This document shows, one piece after another, positions 52,720-64,000 of a stretch of 64,000 bases of DNA. Source of the DNA: Podarcis gaigeae (Eukaryota). Position numbers and translations under genes: made by a program. The notes beneath the pieces are model-generated. The model was not told the origin of the DNA. It made no database searches and was given only the letters and a program-made list of their open reading frames with translations. The stretch is taken from NCBI GenBank assembly GCA_964106915.2, contig OZ066914.1, one strand, 5' to 3'. The number at the start of each line of letters is the position of its first letter. The first letter of the stretch is position 1.

Positions 52720-55700
52720 CTAAAACAAACCACAAGAAAATCACAAAAGTTTGATTGGGGTTTATATGAGAATCTAGATTAAGCTTTAGTGTGGTGTTTT
52801 GACTGATTGGATTTTAGGGTCTATTGAATAACCTTCGGAACATTACAAACACAATTGCTATATATAAAAGCAAAGGCAGAATACAAATGCAATGTAATAT
52901 TAAGCACCCACAACAGCTCATAAAATCCCCCACAAGGACAATCCCACAATGAAATCAGACCACAATTTCACTAGTTGGAGTTAGCAAAGGGCAGAGCTGG
53001 GGAACCTCTGGCCCTCCAGATGTTGTTGGACTCCCAACACCCACCAACCCCAGTCAATGGTCAGGGATGAGAAGATGGAGTCCAACAACATCTGGAGGGC
53101 CAAATGCTCTCCACCCTGGGCCAAAACTCTTGTCTTCCCCAAGGTTTATTGAACTCAACAAGGCATGTATAGGATTGTGAGGCTAATTTGTTAGACTTGA
53201 TAGTCAGATTAGAAAGGCTTTGCAGGAATGCTGTTGTCGCTAACTCTGCACCAAAAACATGGTGCTCACTGCATCCTGTTGGGTGGACTTGTATGTGCAT
53301 TATTGTCAGGAGCGAGCCAGCAGTAAATCACACCGTGCAACTTGGAGTTAACTCTTGATTAGCAAAAAAAGTGTCAGGCCTAATGACCACAGCAACTCAT
53401 CTCTGGTAGTTCTTGCCTCCATGAAGCAGTTGTTCCCCAGCTGGCTCCTCCCCGCATTCCTCTGCATCCAACCAGTCCATGAGAACTATACTACAAGTCC
53501 TCTCTGTGGTATCAAGAGGCAATTGCCATATTTCTTTTCACATAGCAGAGAGCATGCCTTGAAACTATGACACGAATTTATTCCTTAGCAGTAAGCAAAA
53601 ATATATGGGGGCTACATTCACCCTACCTTTAGAATAACATGGGGGCAGAAAGCAGTTAAACATACATAATGCCTAGATGAATTTTGCGGGAGGCCATTTA
53701 CATATCACCAAAAAGGAGCACACAAAATTGCACAAAACTGGCATGTCCTAATTTACATCTGTAGGTGCAAATTTAGAAATAATTGCTATAATTTAAACAG
53801 AAATACATTACACCATAGTGGTTAAGTCTGTGCCCAGGTGACTTGTTTGCCTGCTCAATCTGCTGCCTAAGTGGTAACAGCTGATGGTCAATTTCAAGGT
53901 CTCTGCTCTCTCTGCTGATGGATCCTTACCTTTCAACCAGACCTGGACAAGATAGATATTCAAAGAAAGGACCTCAAATAGAGGACTGTCCTCTGTAAAG
54001 CGGGACACATGGCCACCCACTGGCAGGGCTCCATTACACCTGTGTTTGTCATTCAAATGCAGCCCAGTTATGAACTAAGCTTTTTGCCCCCCCCCCAATG
54101 TTGACAACTGCCAGAAGGGAAATACAGAGGAAGTAATGACATGGTAGGCACAACTGTTAAACCTAAGTACTTAATATTAGGCACATAAATCTAACAGTCT
54201 TAGCAGCAAGAGTTTAATGATGAGCATCCACACTTATCGCTGCGGTTGACACTGACTAATGTGGCTCATTTAATGTTGCCTGCGGCTTTGGGAATACCCC
54301 ACGGATGGGGGTAGAAGGCTCTGTCATAGCAGAGAGGCCTTCGAATGAAGGTGGCCAGGAACAGGCAAAACAAACACCCTCTATTCCAGTTTCTGCTCAA
54401 GTATGCTCAAGTATGTAGGGATGGCAAAAAAAAAAAGTGAAGAGAATCAGAGAAGGCAAGAGTCAAATGAAGTTTTAAAACCTTTCCCGTGTTAATAAGA
54501 CAAATTGCAGCAAGTGACAAAAGTAGCTTATTTAATTATGATTAGCCTCGAAGTTCTTCACACCACACTGGGACTATAAGGTTTAATCGGGAGATTAAGC
54601 AACTGACAGGGAAGATTCACACTTAGCTGGGAGACTCACGGAGCAACAGGACTTACTTCTGAGAAGACATGGACAAGGTTGTGCTGTAAGAGTTCAGTGG
54701 ATTAACTGGCGGAGCCCAATTTTAACTGGCAAGAATGGAGGTTAGGGGCAAACATTTATTTGGGGCTTGTGAGTGGTTGCGTGTGTGTGCTATTTTTGTT
54801 TTGGTGTGTTAATATAATAGGGAATGGGGGGGAAAGATGGTGCTATAATACAGACTGTGTGTTTTAATCTGTAATCTGTTTTTAGTTTGCTGCAAAATTT
54901 GTGTTTTTTCTAATGTTTTAAGCAGTTGCTCTTAACTGTTTTTACCAATAATGTCATCTTTTTTTATTCTCTTTTCAGGTTTTTCACAACCAAGCATAAA
55001 TTTAATGAAATAAATAAATCCCCTCCAGCAAGGTGTGATCATTTTTGTCTACCAAATTGTAAGTTGACATGTTTATTGCAGAAGGCATCTTTATTTATTT
55101 TTTATTTTTTTTGGAGGGGGCAGGGAGCTTCATCTTCAGACAAATTAATGTATTGTGGTTTTGAGAATATGCAAAATCACTGAAATGATTCATTGGTTCA
55201 ACAGCAGGTGATGGCTCAATAGTCAACCATTCACAATGGCAAATTAGGCCTAACGCCATCATTCCCACCTGCCCTTTCCATGTACAAGCCATGCACAGGG
55301 TGATAGCCAATGAGGGTCCCACCAGAGACAATTGGTGCGCACATGTGTGTGTATGCGCACACATGGTGGACTGAAGAGGAAGGAGAAGTCCCACTGAACA
55401 AGTGGAAATCTGCTTGACTTGTGCGGCACTGGGTATCACCCACAGAAAATATGGGTGATGTTTATGTTTGTTTTATTAAATTGATATACTGCCCTTCATC
55501 CAAAGACAGCATTTTTGGGGGAGGGGGAAAGGTGAAGAGTCAACCATATGAAGACCACATCATTGTGCCAAGAATCATCATGCCAGAGCTGCACATGTCT
55601 GGTGGCTGATGCCATCAATGGAGAGGTTCTCCTTGTGAATGGAGCCAGATATGCAGTGAAGGAAATGTTAACTGTTCAGATCCTGAACAGAATGTAGCAT

Positions 55701-55822
55701 CTTTCAGTTCCCTCCACTTTACAGAGGGGAAGGGAAATGTACCCTTGAAACCTAAGCTTTAAGAAGGAATGGTTAGCCTTAACACATTCTCTCCCCAGAA
55801 GATTCGTTCACTTGGTACCTAC

Positions 55823-55899
55823 TTCACTTGAGCTTCAGCTTGCATAAAGATGAATTCCCACTTCCTTGCAAAAGCTCTCTGGAGTCTTGCCAAGTTCTC
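55823..55899 (-). CDS. RGS6: RGS6 exon ENLARLQRAFARKWEFIFMQAEAQV(K)
   Basis: 77 nt, tttag| and |gtaggt, phase 0-2. Confidence 0.97.
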
Positions 55900-57420
55900 C
55901 TAAACGAGAGAGGAAGATGAGGTGAGCCACCAATTATACCAACCCGTGCTCAAAATGAACCTCTCATTATAACGTCAGTCACATGTATCTGCAAAGCCGG
56001 ACAGTCACAAAGCAATGGCGGCGGCAGTTGAAACGACAAGAATGGAAATTGCATTGAGCATAAAAGGAGTAAAGAACAGAACACAATACCTTGAGTTGTA
56101 GCAGGGCATGAAACCACCTTTCTTGTATTACTGGTGTGCACACCCCTTTGTTTCATGTACCTCAGTATATTGGGAATTATTTAGCTGCTGTCTGTTCGCT
56201 TCACATAAGATGAGTCCCATGGTCTTGATGTCAGTGTGGCGTTTATAGAGAGGATTTGAGCCAGCATTTTTAGAGTCCCATTGACTTAAATGGGAGCGTT
56301 TCAAGTATCTACTTAACATTTCAATCAAGTCAGTAGGACTTGAAAGCACTCAATTTTAGCTCAATTCTTTCCATATAACGTATCCATTATGTGTATTTTT
56401 CTCTCTCTACCCCCCCCCCCATGTATTAGTGAAGCAACCTACACTATGGAAATGCCCTTGTCAACACATTGGACTAAATATTAAAGCCCAGCCATTTTAA
56501 GCGACAAATCCACCGTGAGCCAGAATATGCAGACAACATGCCTTGCCTAAAAAAATTAAATAGATACGAACTCACATATAGACAAAAGAATGGGAAAAGA
56601 AGGTATAAGCAAAGGAAAAACAGATTAAAAAAAAGAATTACAAAAACCTCCAAAACATCTGCAGTAATATATCCAATGGTTTGTTTGTAACCACAAAAAC
56701 AAAATCACCCCTAAAAAAATGGAGTTCCTAGTTTTAACAAGAGCTTCTGTTAAAGCCATACACCACCATTCTTATCTTTAATTAACCGGGAAAGTGTTGA
56801 TGTGGTTGCTCATCACGTGAGCTATGGGCTTGAAGAAAATGAAAGATGATCTAATCGTTTGGCCTTTTCTGATAATTATTGCTCTCAATAGGCCCCAGAA
56901 TACTGCATTTTGGTGCCATGCCTTCTCTGCATGTATACCAGAGCATGACTGGTGGCTCTGAGTAAACCCTTTGTGATTCATAAAGAAGCTTTATAACCCG
57001 CACAATTGACTAGCTGATAGTAAGCAAAGATTTGTAACTGAATTTATAAATAATGAAGTTGGAAATGTGTGGGAGTAAAACCCTGTAAAGAGTGATAATA
57101 TAGCATATAAAAATGTTTAATATGCCATGGTTGGTGGTTAGAGTCAATTGGCAGTTCTGCCTGGGTTGCAGGGATGGAATGTGTATCTGTTTAGCAAGCC
57201 AGAGGAAGCACTGGGTTGTGCAGGAATAAACATCCACTGTGGTTTAACAAGCATCCAAAAAGTGAAAGAGCATGAATTTCCTGACATTTATTTAAGAGTT
57301 TCCAGCTAGAAGCAACGATTAGAAAGCACAGATTCCACCTTCAAGTTTGTTGTACAAAGAAAAGAGGTTTGCTTTAGAGGACAACATTACACTTTGTAAC
57401 TGTAAAATCAGTATACCTAC

Positions 57421-57485
57421 GGCTTCATAATCCGCCAGCTCCAGCCTTGCTTTGTTCTGCATGGTCCTCTTGCAAAGATAGATGG
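57421..57485 (-). CDS. RGS6: RGS6 exon (DHEX) (A)[21 protein letters not shown]
   Basis: 65 nt, catag| and |gtaggt, phase 1-0. Confidence 0.97.
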
Positions 57486-59278
57486 CTATGGAGAGAAAGA
57501 AAACAAAATGTCACCATTAAGGCAAGGACAGTTGCTACAGGGGGGAAAAACCCAGCCACAGGTGTAGACCAACTACCATAACTGCAAAATCACATTTTTT
57601 CAGATGCCTGAATCACACACAAAAATCATTTCTGGGTACCCAGAAATTCTGAGCATGTCTGTAGAATTGTTGTGTGTATCATACAAATGCTGCCCTGAGC
57701 TACTTCATGATGATTGGTAGGATACAAATGGAATAAATGATAATAAAATAAATCTTAGCAAAACATCAACATGAATAACATGGGAGAAGAATTTTGACTG
57801 TGAGTGCTAGTCTTTCAAGATGGTTCCCTGTGCATGCTCTACGTGCTAGGGTGTATTTCCCTTAAAAAATGTGCCTACGGTTAAAATTGCCGCCCCAAGC
57901 GTCATCTGGTCCAACAGCCTGCAATGCAAATGCAGCAATGTATTGGGTTACCGACTGGATGGATTTTGCCAGTTATAAGGGAACAGAAATTGCCATCTCT
58001 TAAGCATGAAGCACCTGCTTAAATATCTCCCACTGAAATAAAATGGACTCAGAACTGCTTAGACAGCTGCACAATGGACTCAATGCCTAAAGGAGGAGAA
58101 GAATTGTTTGTTATACATCTTTTTTTCTTACTGACTTGTTGGAGTTATTAACAGTTAAATAAGAGATTGAATGTGATTACCATTATATGACTTCCACAGT
58201 GATGGCAACTCTGCTTCCAACTATAACTACAAATCCTACAATATATTTATTAAAAATTGTGCAGTGATAAGGAAGAAAGGGTTTTTGTTTGTTTGTTTTG
58301 TGTGGTCATAAATTGCTTCTGGTCAACCTGTAAAAAAAAAAGCACTGCCAAAAGCCCTTGTTTTATGAGCACAGGTATATTCATTTCCTTTGCCAGTGCC
58401 CCGGTTGAATGAAAAAATTGATTTTATCATTTCTGCGTGAGAGGAGTATGGCTGTAGAAGAGACAGCAATAACGCATAGAGACAGCTAAAGATAACAATG
58501 CTGACATATTCCTTTTATGCATTAGTACTCAAGCTGTTCAGACATTTAATAGAGAATTCTGTGGTTTATTAGCTCATAAACCACTGTTATTTCTTTCCCA
58601 ACGCCAGACACCAGCCGCTAATATAAACTGATCACTCTTCTTTCCCCCCGCTATACATCAATGCAGTGCCATTTTCATTTACTGCTGCTAAGGGATTTCT
58701 AATTTTGGTTAGAGAACAGTTTATTGATCAGCCAGACTATATATTAGTGTCCAGGCTATATCATCATTTATCGTACAGGACACCAAATTCATCCACAGAT
58801 CACAGCCTGACCTTCGTACAAAAACCATACTAATGATGCGAGATGGCAATAACCTTAAGGCATTTTACAACGCAATCATTTTATACACAGGGAGTGCATT
58901 CATATCTGCAGCTGTAGATCGACACTGTTGCATCTGAATAAAGTCCTATCTTAATTTCCATATTAACTTAATCTCTGTTCTGTACGCAATTTTGTATATG
59001 GCTCGGCACTATTGAAATTACTCTTAATGTCTGCCCTTTTCACACAACAATTAATATCACCACAGCCGGCCCAAGGGGAGCAACAAGTGGTGCCCCATCC
59101 TAAATCAAGGTGCTTAGTATTGAAGGCTGTCAAATTATTTGGCATTAGAGGCACAAACTCCACAAGCACCCCTCCCGAATAGGAAAAACAATAATAAATT
59201 AAACAACTAACAATTTGCTGCCCAATCATGGCACCCAAAACCAGCTTAATAGTAGGGTTGGCTCTGAAAGACACTGTA

Positions 59279-59522
59279 CAGTGGTACCTCAGGATGCGAA
59301 CGGGATCCGTTTCGGAGCCCCATTCGCATCCTGAAGCAAACGCAACCCACGACTGCAGGTCGCGATTCGCCACATCCGTGCATGCGCATGACGTCATTTT
59401 GACCGTCCGCGCATGCGCAAGCGGCGAAACCCGAATGTAACGCGTTCCATTACTTCCGGGTTGCCGCAGAGCGCGACCCAAAAGCGTTCAACCTGAAGAA
59501 GCTTCAACCTGAGGTACGACTG
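59279..59522. mobile_element. Tc1/mariner (Tigger-like) MITE
   Basis: TA|cagtggtacctcagg ... cctgaggtacgactg|TA; CpG-rich. Confidence 0.88.
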
Positions 59523-59949
59523 TAATGTTTCCAGTGTAAAATGAATGTATGGGAATTGGGGGCAGAACTGTGCTGTGACTTCGGCTCAGCTCTGTTTGCC
59601 TTGAGGCAGGTGGGCGCCAACAGAGCAGAAGCAAAAAAAGGGGAGGGAGGTGGTCTTGACAGCCACTGAAACACTGTGGCTGGTGCCCACAGTTTTAATT
59701 TCTCCCCAAATTACTCTGGGGCCCCAACTCAGGGTAGCTCTGGAGCAAGGTTACACTGGGGCCCCTAGTGGCAGAACTGGATAAGGCATGGGTACACAGG
59801 AAAAACGTAACAGTTTTTAAATCTTCTCCCCAAACACTGTGAGATTGGAGAGAGCCCTGGAGAAATGATTCACAGTAATTAAAAACTAGAGTCAAAACAA
59901 AAAAAATTCCTTCCAGTAGCACCTTAAAGACCAACTAAGTTAGTTCTTG

Positions 59950-59987
59950 GTATGAGCTTTCGTGTGCATGCACACTTCTTCAGATAC
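59950..59987 (-). ncRNA. minimal type I hammerhead ribozyme motif (sense to RGS6 pre-mRNA)
   Basis: exact reverse complement of 60313-60350. Confidence 0.75.
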
Positions 59988-60312
59988 ACTGAAACAGAAG
60001 TTACCAGACCCTTCTATATAGTGAGAAGGTGGGGAGGGGTATTACTCAGAAGGGTGGTGGGAATGGGTGATTGGCAGATAGCTGTGATGAGCCTGTTGAT
60101 GACTCTTAACGACTGCAATAGGTCTTACATGACAAAGCCATTTTTCACCTTCTCACCCCTTGCTTTTTCCTGTAAGACCTATTGCAGTCGTTAAGAGTTG
60201 TCAACAGGCTCATCACAGCTATCTGCCAATCACCCATTCCCACCACCCTTCTGAGTAATACCCCTCCCCACCTTCTCACTATATAGAAGGGTCTGGTAAC
60301 TTCTGTTTCAGT

Positions 60313-60350
60313 GTATCTGAAGAAGTGTGCATGCACACGAAAGCTCATAC
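60313..60350 (+). ncRNA. minimal type I hammerhead ribozyme motif
   Basis: GTAT-CTGAAGA-A-GTGTGCATGCACAC-GAAA-GC-TC-ATAC: CUGANGA and GAAA cores, palindromic stem II, AGCU stem III, CUC site, stem I GUAU/AUAC. Confidence 0.75.
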
Positions 60351-61056
60351 CAAGAACTAACTTAGTTGGTCTTTAAGGTGCTACTGGAAGGAATTTTTTT
60401 TGTTTTGACTATGGCAGACCAACACGGCTACCTATCTGTAACAGTAAAAACTAGAGCTATCTGTTGACATATAACTGCCGTTATATTAGTTAATGGGAGG
60501 CTAGGATTAAGACATTTAACACAATATGCACATCTGTTGCATTAAATTTAAATTTCCATAGATTTCAAATTGTATTACATACAGTAAGTGCAATATGAGA
60601 AATAAAAGAAGCCAGAAGAATACAATCCAAAATAATTCAGCACCTAGCAGAGCATATTACAATTGCTACAACAGGAAGGGAAATCATTAAGTGGGCCACC
60701 AAGACCCTCAGCAATTTTCAAGTGTTCAGCTAGGAAGAGGGAAACACTGCTCTTGAAAAAAAAATCTACTGTTAATTTAATAATTCATCCCATAATGTCT
60801 CTTGTGCTTGCTCATTGTATATATCATGAATTTGCTCCAGGAGATGCTGCATGTCAGTTGAATGAGGGTTAATATTATTATTATCATCCAAACTGAAAGA
60901 CAGTCCAGCTCTAGTCATGCGAATAGAACTGTTTCTTACATGGGAAAGGAAAGCAATGTGGGTCATATAACGAATCATCTCTTTTTAGAACAACTTGGTC
61001 ACTGGAAATATATTTACAAATAACATTTTAAAAATTACATCACCGCAAATTCTCAC

Positions 61057-61108
61057 CATAGTCTGTGTTTTCTGGTTCCCAACAATTTGAAGGCCAAAAA
61101 TATGGAGC
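61057..61108 (-). CDS. RGS6: RGS6 exon APYFWPSNCWEPENTDY
   Basis: 52 nt, ttcag| and |gtgaga, phase 0-1. Confidence 0.97.
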
Positions 61109-61344
61109 CTGAAAAACAGTGAATTTTTATCACTATGATGCATTCATCCAAATATAATTATTGCTGTTATCATAATTAATATGTTTATTTTATGAATCAC
61201 TTCTCATGAGGCATCCCAAAGTAATTTACAATATAACAAAAACATATTTACAACAGTTGCGCATATTAAAAACAGTTAAAACAATTAAATGTATAGATAC
61301 AATTTTAAAAACAATTCGCGCACGTGTGTGTGTGTAAAATCTGA

Positions 61345-61508
61345 TGGGAGGGTGTTGCACAGGGCAGGCGCCACTACCGAGAAGGCCCTCTGTTTGGTTC
61401 CCTGTAACCTCACTTCTCGCAATAAGGAAACTGCCAGAAGGCCCTCGGCGCTAGATCTCAGTGTCTGGGCTGAAGAATGGGGATGGAGACGCTCCTTCAG
61501 GTATACAG
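61345..61508 (-). mobile_element. L2-type LINE fragment
   Basis: gaaggccctctgtttggttccctgtaacc...gccagaaggccctcggcgct; same family as 37127 and 49480. Confidence 0.75.
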
Positions 61509-61749
61509 GACATTCTTATGTTAATGAGAAATATTCATAAAACAAGATTTGATCAGTTGTAAAATACTGTGAGAATTATATTTTCTTTCATTGCCTCCTC
61601 ATATGAAGAAAACTGATATAAAGCCGTGTGATGTAACCAAGATGTGTAGCCATTCCAGCAGGAAGAAGATGGCGAATTTCCCCCCAGAAATGCTTGTATT
61701 GATGTGGTTTGGGAAGTCAAAACAAGCTGGCAGACTCAAGTCTCATCTT

Positions 61750-62392
61750 AGAACTTTAGACTTGGGAGGAAGTTGGGAGGAATCCTGAGGGTAATCTAGT
61801 CCAACCCCCTGCAATGGAGGAATCACAACTAACACAGATGGAGGAATCACAACTAACACAGATGGTCATATAACCTTTGCTTAAAAACCTCCAAGGAAGA
61901 AGAAAGTCCACCACCTCTCATGGGATTCTGTTCCACTGCTGAACAGCTCTTACCATCAGAAAATTATTCCAGATGTTTAGCTGGAATCTCCTTTCTTGTA
62001 ACTGGTTCAGGTCCTAGGCTCTGGAGCAGGAGAAAACAAGCTTGCTCCATCTTCCATGTGACACCTCTTTAGATATTTGAAGATGGCTATCATATCTCCT
62101 CTCAGTCTCTTCTTATCCAGGCTAAACATACCTAACTCCCACAACTGTTCCTCAGAAGGCTTGGTTTCCAGACCCTTTATCATCTTGGCCACCCTCCTCT
62201 GCACACATTCTAGTTCATTAATACAGTGGTACCTAAGTTCCCAAATGCCTCCATTGTCGTACATTTCGGTTCACGAACGTCAAAAATCCAGAAGTACCAC
62301 TGTATCCTTATTAAACTGTGGTTTCCAGAACTGGACACAGTACTCCAGATGGGATCTGACCAAGGCAGACTGGAACAGTACTATAACTTCCC
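61750..62392 (-). mobile_element. older CR1 LINE 3' fragment
   Basis: ORF 62007..62264 LECVQRRVAKMIKGLE...RLRGDMIAIFKYLK matches the CR1 ORF2 C-terminus; 24-bp tandem duplication at 61814-61861. Confidence 0.9.
62224..62302. mobile_element. 79-bp Tc1/mariner MITE nested in CR1
   Basis: TA|cagtggtac ... gtaccactg|TA. Confidence 0.8.
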
Positions 62393-62825
62393 TTGCGGCA
62401 TCGCATTGTGGGTATGTCAACTGCCAATGGGTGGAAAGTGTAGGAAAATAAGTTGGGCATGAGACTGATCATAATATGCCATGCCACGGGGCATAAGTAT
62501 GTGGTAGAACACATGGTTAGCAACCAAAATGGTGTGAGACTCAACACCTAGCCCTACTAGTTTAAAAGGAATCTCTGTCACAGTTAAAACAAACCAACCA
62601 ACCCCCCAAACTTAACTTTATATATAAGCATCTGTTAATGCTTAGTTATAATAAAAGTTAAGCATTTCCATGCCGCTGTCAAACAACTAAAGCAGCTCCT
62701 CCAAAAGTTAGAAGGCAGCAGGTGTGTGTAGGAATGCCTTTACTCTAGGTTCATTCCTCTTGTCAAGGAGAAAGCAGGAAGTTCTTATCAAGGAGGGTGT
62801 TGAGTTGTTGTGTAATCCAAATTAC

Positions 62826-62932
62826 CTGAAAGCGATAGAAAGTCCCATCATCCTTCAAAGTAAGTACATGGTCTGAGATTGGGAAAATGTATCCCTGTGC
62901 TGCAATGAGACTTCCCATATGTATTGCTTCAG
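62826..62932 (-). CDS. RGS6: RGS6 exon (DEP) (A)[35 protein letters not shown]
   Basis: 107 nt, ccag| and |gtaatt, phase 1-0; near-identical to recalled RGS6. Confidence 0.97.
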
Positions 62933-63738
62933 CTGGAAATTAAGGCAGAAAAAATATATGTCAAATATCTGTACAAAGCAACATCTCCCAAGGCCTAGGG
63001 TGGCAGGACCTTGTTGGTACAGCAGTCCCCGAGCCATGACCACCTCCTTCCTTACAGACACGCCTGGGTGCTAAAATTGGCAGAGGGGGCCCCTCTTGGT
63101 AGTTCCTCCACCCTCAGAGCCTGGTGGCGGCCCAAAAGAGGACATTCTCCGTGATAGGCCCTAAGCTGTGGGAGTCCCTCCCCACAGAGGTGCATCTGGA
63201 GCCTCGCCTTCATTCAGAGACATACAAATCCCACTGAATTCATTGGAGCTTCTTCCCAGTTAAGTGGGTACAGGATTGCAGCCTCAGGTTTTGCTATAAT
63301 GCCTCTGCAATCACTGAAATAGCCTCAATATATGACAAGTCTGCTGACCCAGACAACTTTAAAAACTATGTTAATATATCATAATAAAAAAATTCTCAAG
63401 TTCTGAAGAGTTTACCACAATTCTGAATGTGTGGTAGGCACCTCCCTATCCTTCTCTAAGGTTTTCGTCAATCCAAATGTGGTAGAAAGAATTCTGGAGA
63501 ACTCAGAAGAGAAAATGAAAGGGATGGCACGAAACTACTTTCAACCCGTCTTTCATCTTGTGGTCACTTTCCCCACCTGGGTCTCAGAAACAATGTTCCC
63601 AGAATCTTAACCCTTTAGTTTGGGATGCCACAGAATCACAAGATTCCGAGTTTAATTTTATAGCATACAATATTGCAAGCCATAGATAATACCAAGCCCC
63701 AAGCTTATATATTTTTTGGCATTGGAAGAACAAATTAC

Positions 63739-63789
63739 CTGGGTCTTCAATGTTGAGATTCTTCATGAGCCACTGCACTATGTCAGTCC
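63739..63789 (-). CDS. RGS6: RGS6 coding exon (first in window; DEP domain) (G)TDIVQWLMKNLNIEDP
   Basis: 51 nt, ctag| acceptor, |gtaatt donor, phase 1-1; translation matches recalled RGS6 GTDIVQWLMKNLSIEDP. Confidence 0.96.
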
Positions 63790-64000
63790 CTAGAGAACGG
63801 AAAGGAGAGGAAAGGAAAGGAAGAAAGCCAAAAGGAATGAGACAAAGAATACATAAGCAATAAGAATGATTTTCAGCCGTGTGGTGGAGAGGAAATGCTG
63901 TGGGGAGGGGTTCGGCTTTTTTACAGCAGGAGCAACGTTGTCATCAGGAGGAGAACCAGGATAATTGTTGAGTGCCCCCCCCCCCCGCTCTAGTAGGTGA

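Follow-up and report, generated by a model that had tools for sequence, protein, structure and literature searches.

An inverted-arm Penelope-like insertion in a lizard RGS6 intron, probably made by priming from both ends of a staggered cut

The long hairpin in an intron of RGS6 within the window (the whole 64-kb stretch of DNA that was analysed) is best read as an insertion, likely recent and truncated at its 5' end, of a Penelope-like element (PLE) with a high copy number; the insertion likely arose when a staggered cut primed two reverse transcriptions, and its hammerhead motifs are likely inert passengers (probability about 0.85). A single locus of this kind is of little weight, being one among thousands of similar units. 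The element family, by contrast, opens two questions to genome sequence alone, namely the origin of the inverted ends of PLEs and whether the template RNA is cleaved by the hammerhead. The counts presented here speak for twin priming at two fixed start sites, on an uncut template, in agreement with one in vitro study (PMC11167929).

The two arms of the unit (59890-60129 and 60171-60410) are mutually reverse-complementary except at two positions (60100/60200 and 60101/60199), lie around a 41-nt spacer, and are bracketed by a 12-mer direct repeat that has no third copy in the 64-kb window (Table 1). The original prediction had described a 240-bp hairpin with two mismatches, a 41-bp spacer and a 12-bp bracketing repeat, and all of this was recovered at the same positions. 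A looser comparison stretches the arms to 249 nt, with mismatches increasing. The two mismatches are opposite changes within a single CpG of the family sequence. Two features had been missed in the first reading. A 32-nt tail is present only beyond the right arm and is absent from the left, and the 'spacer' is itself element sequence, its first letters being the stop codon of the open reading frame (ORF); the tailed plus-strand copy begins at the final ORF codons of the element. Folding of the full unit is predicted to give one hairpin of -485.5 kcal/mol, compared with -6.8 kcal/mol for the hammerhead motif by itself.

Table 1. Features of the insertion and its host intron, in window coordinates
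Feature	Position	Strand	Remark
Left target-site duplication, 12 bp	59880..59891	+	Final 2 nt shared with arm end; match of organism B and C contigs ends at 59891
Inverted tail-less arm, element 3' end ~-280 to -32	59890..60129	-	Sense to RGS6
Minimal type-I hammerhead motif, catalytic sense on RGS6 strand	59950..59987	-	Predicted cut after 59954
Mirror TATA/initiator copy, putative	59988..60020	-	Mirror of 60280-60312; presumably in RGS6 direction
TACA microhomology, 4 nt, at inversion junction	60126..60129		Junction comparison
Main tailed copy, 5'-truncated (-316 to 0)	60126..60442	+	Antisense to RGS6
Stop codon of RT-GIY-YIG ORF	60130..60132	+	Start of spacer; rest of ORF missing here
Putative pLTR core promoter	60280..60312	+	TATA-like box 60280-60287 and initiator-like A 60310, 30 nt apart
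Minimal hammerhead motif, catalytic sense on plus strand	60313..60350	+	Predicted cut after 60346
PLE tail, 32 nt, on a single arm	60411..60442	+	Comparison with sister copies
Right target-site duplication	60445..60456	+	Repeat search in window
Host RGS6 intron between two DHEX-region exons, 3.57 kb, GT-AG	57486..61056	-	Exon map

The host gene lies on the minus strand and scores 120.7 bits to RGS6 against 100.4 to RGS7, and its RGS exon is 100% identical to lizard RGS6 entries across 95% of the query, which places the genome among the squamates and likely among the lacertids. The exon map and this preference for RGS6 over RGS7 confirm the proposed location in an RGS6 intron, where the hairpin lies ~600 nt away from the splice donor. 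The long duplex expected in RGS6 pre-mRNA is also supported, as a folding prediction. The coding exons of RGS6 extend over ~198 kb of the minus strand (C1:46190001-46390936), with the first exon ~137 kb outside the window.

We take Neptune to be the name of the reptile clade of PLEs. The genome searched consists of 1.51 Gb in 211 contigs, in which the 275-nt right part of the unit has 1,442 candidate places, the best 30 of these being 99-100% identical. The 39-nt ribozyme motif has 8,960 exact genomic copies and a 28-mer downstream of the ribozyme has 15,461, while the reversed control of each gave 0. The hairpin locus has thousands of counterparts of similar build, and its structure is a known one. 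Longer sister copies contain a single ORF with a reverse transcriptase (RT) followed by a C-terminal GIY-YIG domain; the longest pieces examined cover ~1.4 kb of the 3' end, none being full-length. In sister copy L009 the RVT_1 match (E=1.7e-6) is to a partial domain, at 28.4 bits against a cut-off of 29.6, and GIY-YIG is matched at E=1.2e-5. This copy (C2:66028082-66031354) also has an inverted pLTR piece joined in frame with a long RT-EN ORF that is truncated at its 5' end, and in another, L008, the inverted arm exceeds 1.1 kb.

Translations of the sister copies have a C-x4-C-x2-C linker between RT and EN, and a C-x2-C between the VY and YIG positions, as in the definition of EN+ PLEs (PMC8557442). 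According to the same source, a CX2-5CxxC linker between RT and EN is common to Neptune and Nematis and absent in Penelope/Poseidon. By these definitions, as applied to translated sequence, the family is a PLE of Neptune/Nematis type. The Penelope-like origin suggested at the outset is borne out by the RT, GIY-YIG and linker of the sister copies, and the suggested inverted 5' pLTR with its target-site duplication (TSD) is seen here as an inverted truncated copy, a tail at one end and the 12-bp repeat. An inverted pLTR, a tail, a TSD and a TATA/Inr in the pLTR are published features (PMC3846280; PMC8557442). As in the EN+ PLE units described there, such as Pen2a_Av, a direct pLTR adjoins a shorter inverted pLTR, and the likeness to Pen2a_Av includes a tail of 30-40 nt on one end, a TSD and a TATA plus Inr-like site. 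Unlike in the Pen2a_Av units as described, there is no ORF past the stop codon here and the copy number is far higher.

The copy population was sampled from the first 88 of 100 listed 28-mer matches (C1:0.08-4.69 Mb), which were grouped into 64 consecutive units; sampling by exact 28-mers somewhat favours two-armed units. Both strands are present in 42 of the 64 units, so that about two-thirds are inverted, and 40 of these 42 are tail-out. The inverted form is the norm for the element family. Two complete cores on opposite strands occur in 10 units of this sample. Six of the 40 tail-out units were set aside because their outer end fell outside both 3'-end classes, and among the 34 left a tailed arm is paired with a tail-less arm in 33, one unit being double tail-less and none double-tailed (P=2e-9). 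In 13 of the 33 pairs the 5' extent of the tail-less arm exceeds that of the tailed arm by 10 nt or more and neither arm contains the other; the other 20 may be nested. Flanking repeats of 11-15 bp (mode 12) are found in 32/41 pairs, a set of 43 from which one cross-pair and one microsatellite site had been removed.

Paired arms agree at subfamily marker 60359 in 35/37 cases, where 48% discordance would be expected under independence, and they differ by 1.5%, compared with 2.1% for shuffled partners (0/1000 shuffles were as close). The agreement at this marker indicates that the arms of a pair mostly derive from one source locus or subfamily, and it led us to reject a separate source element for each arm as the usual case. 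Non-CpG markers are discordant between the arms at three loci (L011, L016 and L029/L089).

If each strand were primed from its own single start site, twin priming would account for the pairing of tailed with tail-less arms, for the 12-bp repeat and for arms that are not nested. We propose that a dimeric RT/GIY-YIG protein would nick both target strands ~12 nt apart, with one nicked end priming at the start site of the tail and the other starting 27-49 nt further upstream. The two cDNAs would end early and would then be joined, at TACA in this unit. In LINE-1 twin priming two target ends also prime, the cDNAs meet at microhomology and the TSD is retained, as here. Unlike here, however, the inverted part in LINE-1 is upstream sequence, whereas both arms of this unit are the same 3' end with two fixed start zones. 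A second class of junction was seen in L005, L017, L027 and L028 (oriented ~900-1400): these have an L1-like inversion, with the inverted portion coming from further upstream in the element and overlapping little.

A lizard Poseidon protein, PAc of Anolis carolinensis, has been reported to nick and extend both target strands, to use two RT start sites spaced by the length of the tail and to be predicted to form a dimer; its hammerhead did not cleave in the absence of the protein and was unnecessary for insertion (PMC11167929). PAc is thus like the present element in being a lizard PLE with both strands extended, a dispensable hammerhead and start sites at tail-length spacing. It differs in that the element here has a zinc-finger linker, which Penelope/Poseidon are described as being without, and in that the evidence for PAc is biochemical whereas the evidence here is genomic, per insertion.

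Two other origins for the second arm have to be considered. In PMC3846280 self-priming was put forward for the inverted-arm structure, and an ordinary PLE insertion could accordingly have gained its second arm when one cDNA, or an antisense template, primed itself or was copied by folding back. We regard this as unlikely, despite several points that suit it. The marker at 60359 is shared by nearly all pairs and arms are closer to each other than to shuffled partners, several junctions fall within the palindromic stem II, and at the RGS6 locus the tail-less arm is nested. The marker concordance fits fold-back and twin priming equally well, provided that the twin priming used a single tandem RNA or RNAs transcribed from a single locus. 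The non-nested arms, which a single folded-back cDNA could not yield, favour two priming events, and the strict pairing of tailed with tail-less arms and the three loci with discordant non-CpG markers also speak against fold-back. In this the arm geometry departs from the self-priming proposed for Pen2a_Av (PMC3846280). It is extremely improbable that the hairpin is a fold-back artefact of assembly. In a second sample of this organism, a contig (59378-59917) runs from the flank into the inverted arm with one difference, and the TSD, the asymmetry of the tail, the microhomology and the opposite changes at one CpG are unlike products of read fold-back. What such an artefact has in its favour is that no compared contig covers the entire unit, that the left-junction contig reaches 28 letters into the arm where the bridging rule is 31 letters, and that the X1 contig ends at 59870, before the unit.

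Contigs of two related organisms, B and C, match the window through the end of the left repeat and then continue with 269 letters foreign to the stretch. Judging from where the match ends, both are likely to have an empty site and to lack the insertion. Being likely absent there, and one of thousands alike, the insertion is unlikely to have a selected role.

The CUGAAGA...GAAA...CUC pattern has one match per strand, with cores at 60317-60342 (+) and 59983-59958 (-), and these are the sole matches on both strands of the 64 kb. The motif is made up of a 4-bp stem I, CUGAAGA, an extra A, a 5-bp stem II, GAAA, an AGCU palindrome and a CUC triplet, and the plus-strand copy has all minimal type-I features (cores, NUH triplet, extra base after A9 and palindromic 15.2-16.2). 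The stem and loop of stem II together form a single palindrome. The cores, palindromic stem II, AGCU and CUC triplet that had been predicted on each strand are therefore present, but an Rfam covariance-model scan of 54000-64000 (E<=5) returned zero hammerhead families among seven hits. These seven are hairpin-shaped miRNA matches below the gathering score and were dismissed as by-products of the stem. The ribozyme is therefore identified from the anatomy of the motif, by comparison with the published description of minimal hammerheads.

This anatomy resembles that of the hammerheads in PMC4209133 in the CUGANGA and GAAA cores, the extra nucleotide between A9 and G10.1, the G10.1-C11.1 pair, the palindromic 15.2-16.2 and the 4-bp stem I, and so argues for the minimal, dimer-type hammerhead originally claimed. 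Unlike in the hammerheads described there, stem II here is entirely self-complementary. Among minimal metazoan PLE hammerheads, a single motif was found not to cleave and dimers were weakly active (PMC4209133), and a review agrees that the minimal motif alone is inactive and that dimers are of low activity (PMC6765202). Hammerhead pairs on opposite strands, 100-700 bp apart, have already been published (PMC4209133). The lowest-energy predicted dimer of two monomers joins via stem II (14 bp), not stem III. As each transcript has one catalytic-sense copy, there is no dimer partner in cis, and the hammerhead is likely idle rather than locked. Within RGS6 pre-mRNA the unit would form a duplex, and the lone sense ribozyme would have no dimer partner, so that a lock would be unneeded and the insertion likely neutral. 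Non-LTR retrozymes (bioRxiv 10.64898/2026.07.22.740005) likewise come from PLE pLTRs and have a type-I hammerhead, but theirs are head-to-tail tandems able to dimerise in cis, whereas the copies here are inverted with one sense copy per strand. The head-to-tail hammerhead tandem expected of a non-LTR retrozyme was not found in the unit, which has one inverted pair only.

The 5' ends of the arms bear on whether the template RNA was cut. Among the 88 arms, 31 start at -135 to -127, around the TATA/Inr-like site (Poisson P=3e-12), and 4 start no more than 3 nt from the predicted cut site, where 5 would be expected and there is thus no excess; two rows of the underlying 5'-end table rest on an ungapped estimate. 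A second, BLAST-based sample gave 19/46 starts at the TATA/Inr site and 1/46 at the cut site. Where arms start at the equivalent of 60313, 7/9 are preceded by a G absent from the element (by eye; P=0.008). A copied cap would leave an extra 5' G of this kind, as in L1. The pile-up at the TATA/Inr and the lack of excess at the cut site suggest that the template RNAs were likely uncut. The pile-up was also considered as a splice acceptor, from its pyrimidine-CAG look, and this was judged less likely as the upstream letters are not a shared exon.

A more specific proposal, to which we give about even odds, is that the family records the PLE mechanism as it runs in vivo, that inverted insertions are made by an asymmetric dimer using each RT start once, and that around a third of arms are run-offs of the capped 5' end of uncut RNA, which would start 0-3 nt before the hammerhead. 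If true, the ribozyme would not process the insertion template and might instead be a protein-gated switch or a folding handle at the start of the transcript. The promoter of Drosophila Penelope is internal and TATA-less (PMC2377424), which indicates that promoter type varies among PLEs. In the genome, as noted from sister copies L061-L130, there are many 100-135-nt copies and mini-hairpins resembling run-offs of RNA 5' ends. Loose ends were found at 59987 in 4/4 runs, at the same boundary as the pile-up of arm starts. At title and abstract level, mostly without subscription journals, the literature gave no claim of twin priming in PLEs or of an antisense lock, no report of a start-site pile-up and no statement of a per-insertion tail rule with counts.

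The original prediction had offered an antisense lock as something that could let the insertion persist. On this reading the sense hammerhead would cut RGS6 pre-mRNA, as a trans dimer or with help from protein, were it not paired first by the other arm. This is very improbable. The predicted folding energies make capture in the hairpin physically plausible, and in Xenopus tandem retrozymes are underrepresented within introns (bioRxiv 10.64898/2026.07.22.740005), although those retrozymes can dimerise in cis, unlike this unit. The main copy, which has the tail, lies antisense to RGS6, and the antisense arm is, as predicted, transcribed first; however, a tail-out unit reads antisense-first on both strands, so that arm order is uninformative about RGS6. 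RNA from the arm's own putative promoter, moreover, would be without the antisense arm. Sense and antisense cores were compared in 1.55 Mb covering three genes of known strand, namely a neurexin on C1, a neurexin-superfamily gene on C24, which is presumably CNTNAP-like, and RGS6. These contain 28 units (18 inverted, 6 solo sense and 4 solo antisense), and the predicted bias towards inverted copies is not seen, at 18/28 in the genes and 42/64 in the unselected stretch (Fisher P=1.0), where the in-gene sample is small and BLAST-found and the comparison stretch is unannotated and exact-28-mer-found. The three genes have 13 complete sense cores, of which 9 have 23-38 nt of antisense cover (6 fully and 3 partly covered) and 4 are covered over 0-3 nt. 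Two of these uncovered cores are exact, at 98-99% identity, and a third has CUU at the cut site. In the fourth, stem II is altered and there is a short inverted stub, which BLAST had overlooked. Uncovered sense hammerheads occur in neurexin introns. Antisense cores without sense cover number ~3, and no asymmetry is visible. RGS6 alone, with 5 units in ~200 kb, is too small a sample for such a comparison, and its only complete sense core is the covered one. In this small sample the strong form of the lock fails.

It is also quite unlikely, if less so than a lock, that an insertion of neutral origin has since acquired an effect on its host, with the duplex being ADAR-edited or diced, or with the promoter or pyrimidine-CAG of the sense arm starting or capturing an alternative RGS6 transcript. 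A near-perfect 240-bp duplex so close to a splice donor, and a TATA/Inr-like site directed down the gene, would suit such an effect; the likely absence from two related organisms and the thousands of units alike argue against it. Across the introns of lacertid-type lizards very many near-perfect hairpins are implied, and with them a large possible load of candidate ADAR/Dicer substrates.

Other repeats were also noted in the window. A separate high-copy repeat at 59270-59531 is MITE- or SINE-like, with internal palindromes and terminal inverted repeats that are imperfect; organisms B and C share it, and a related end lies near 62222-62304. At 61814-61861 there is a perfect tandem duplication of 24 nt.
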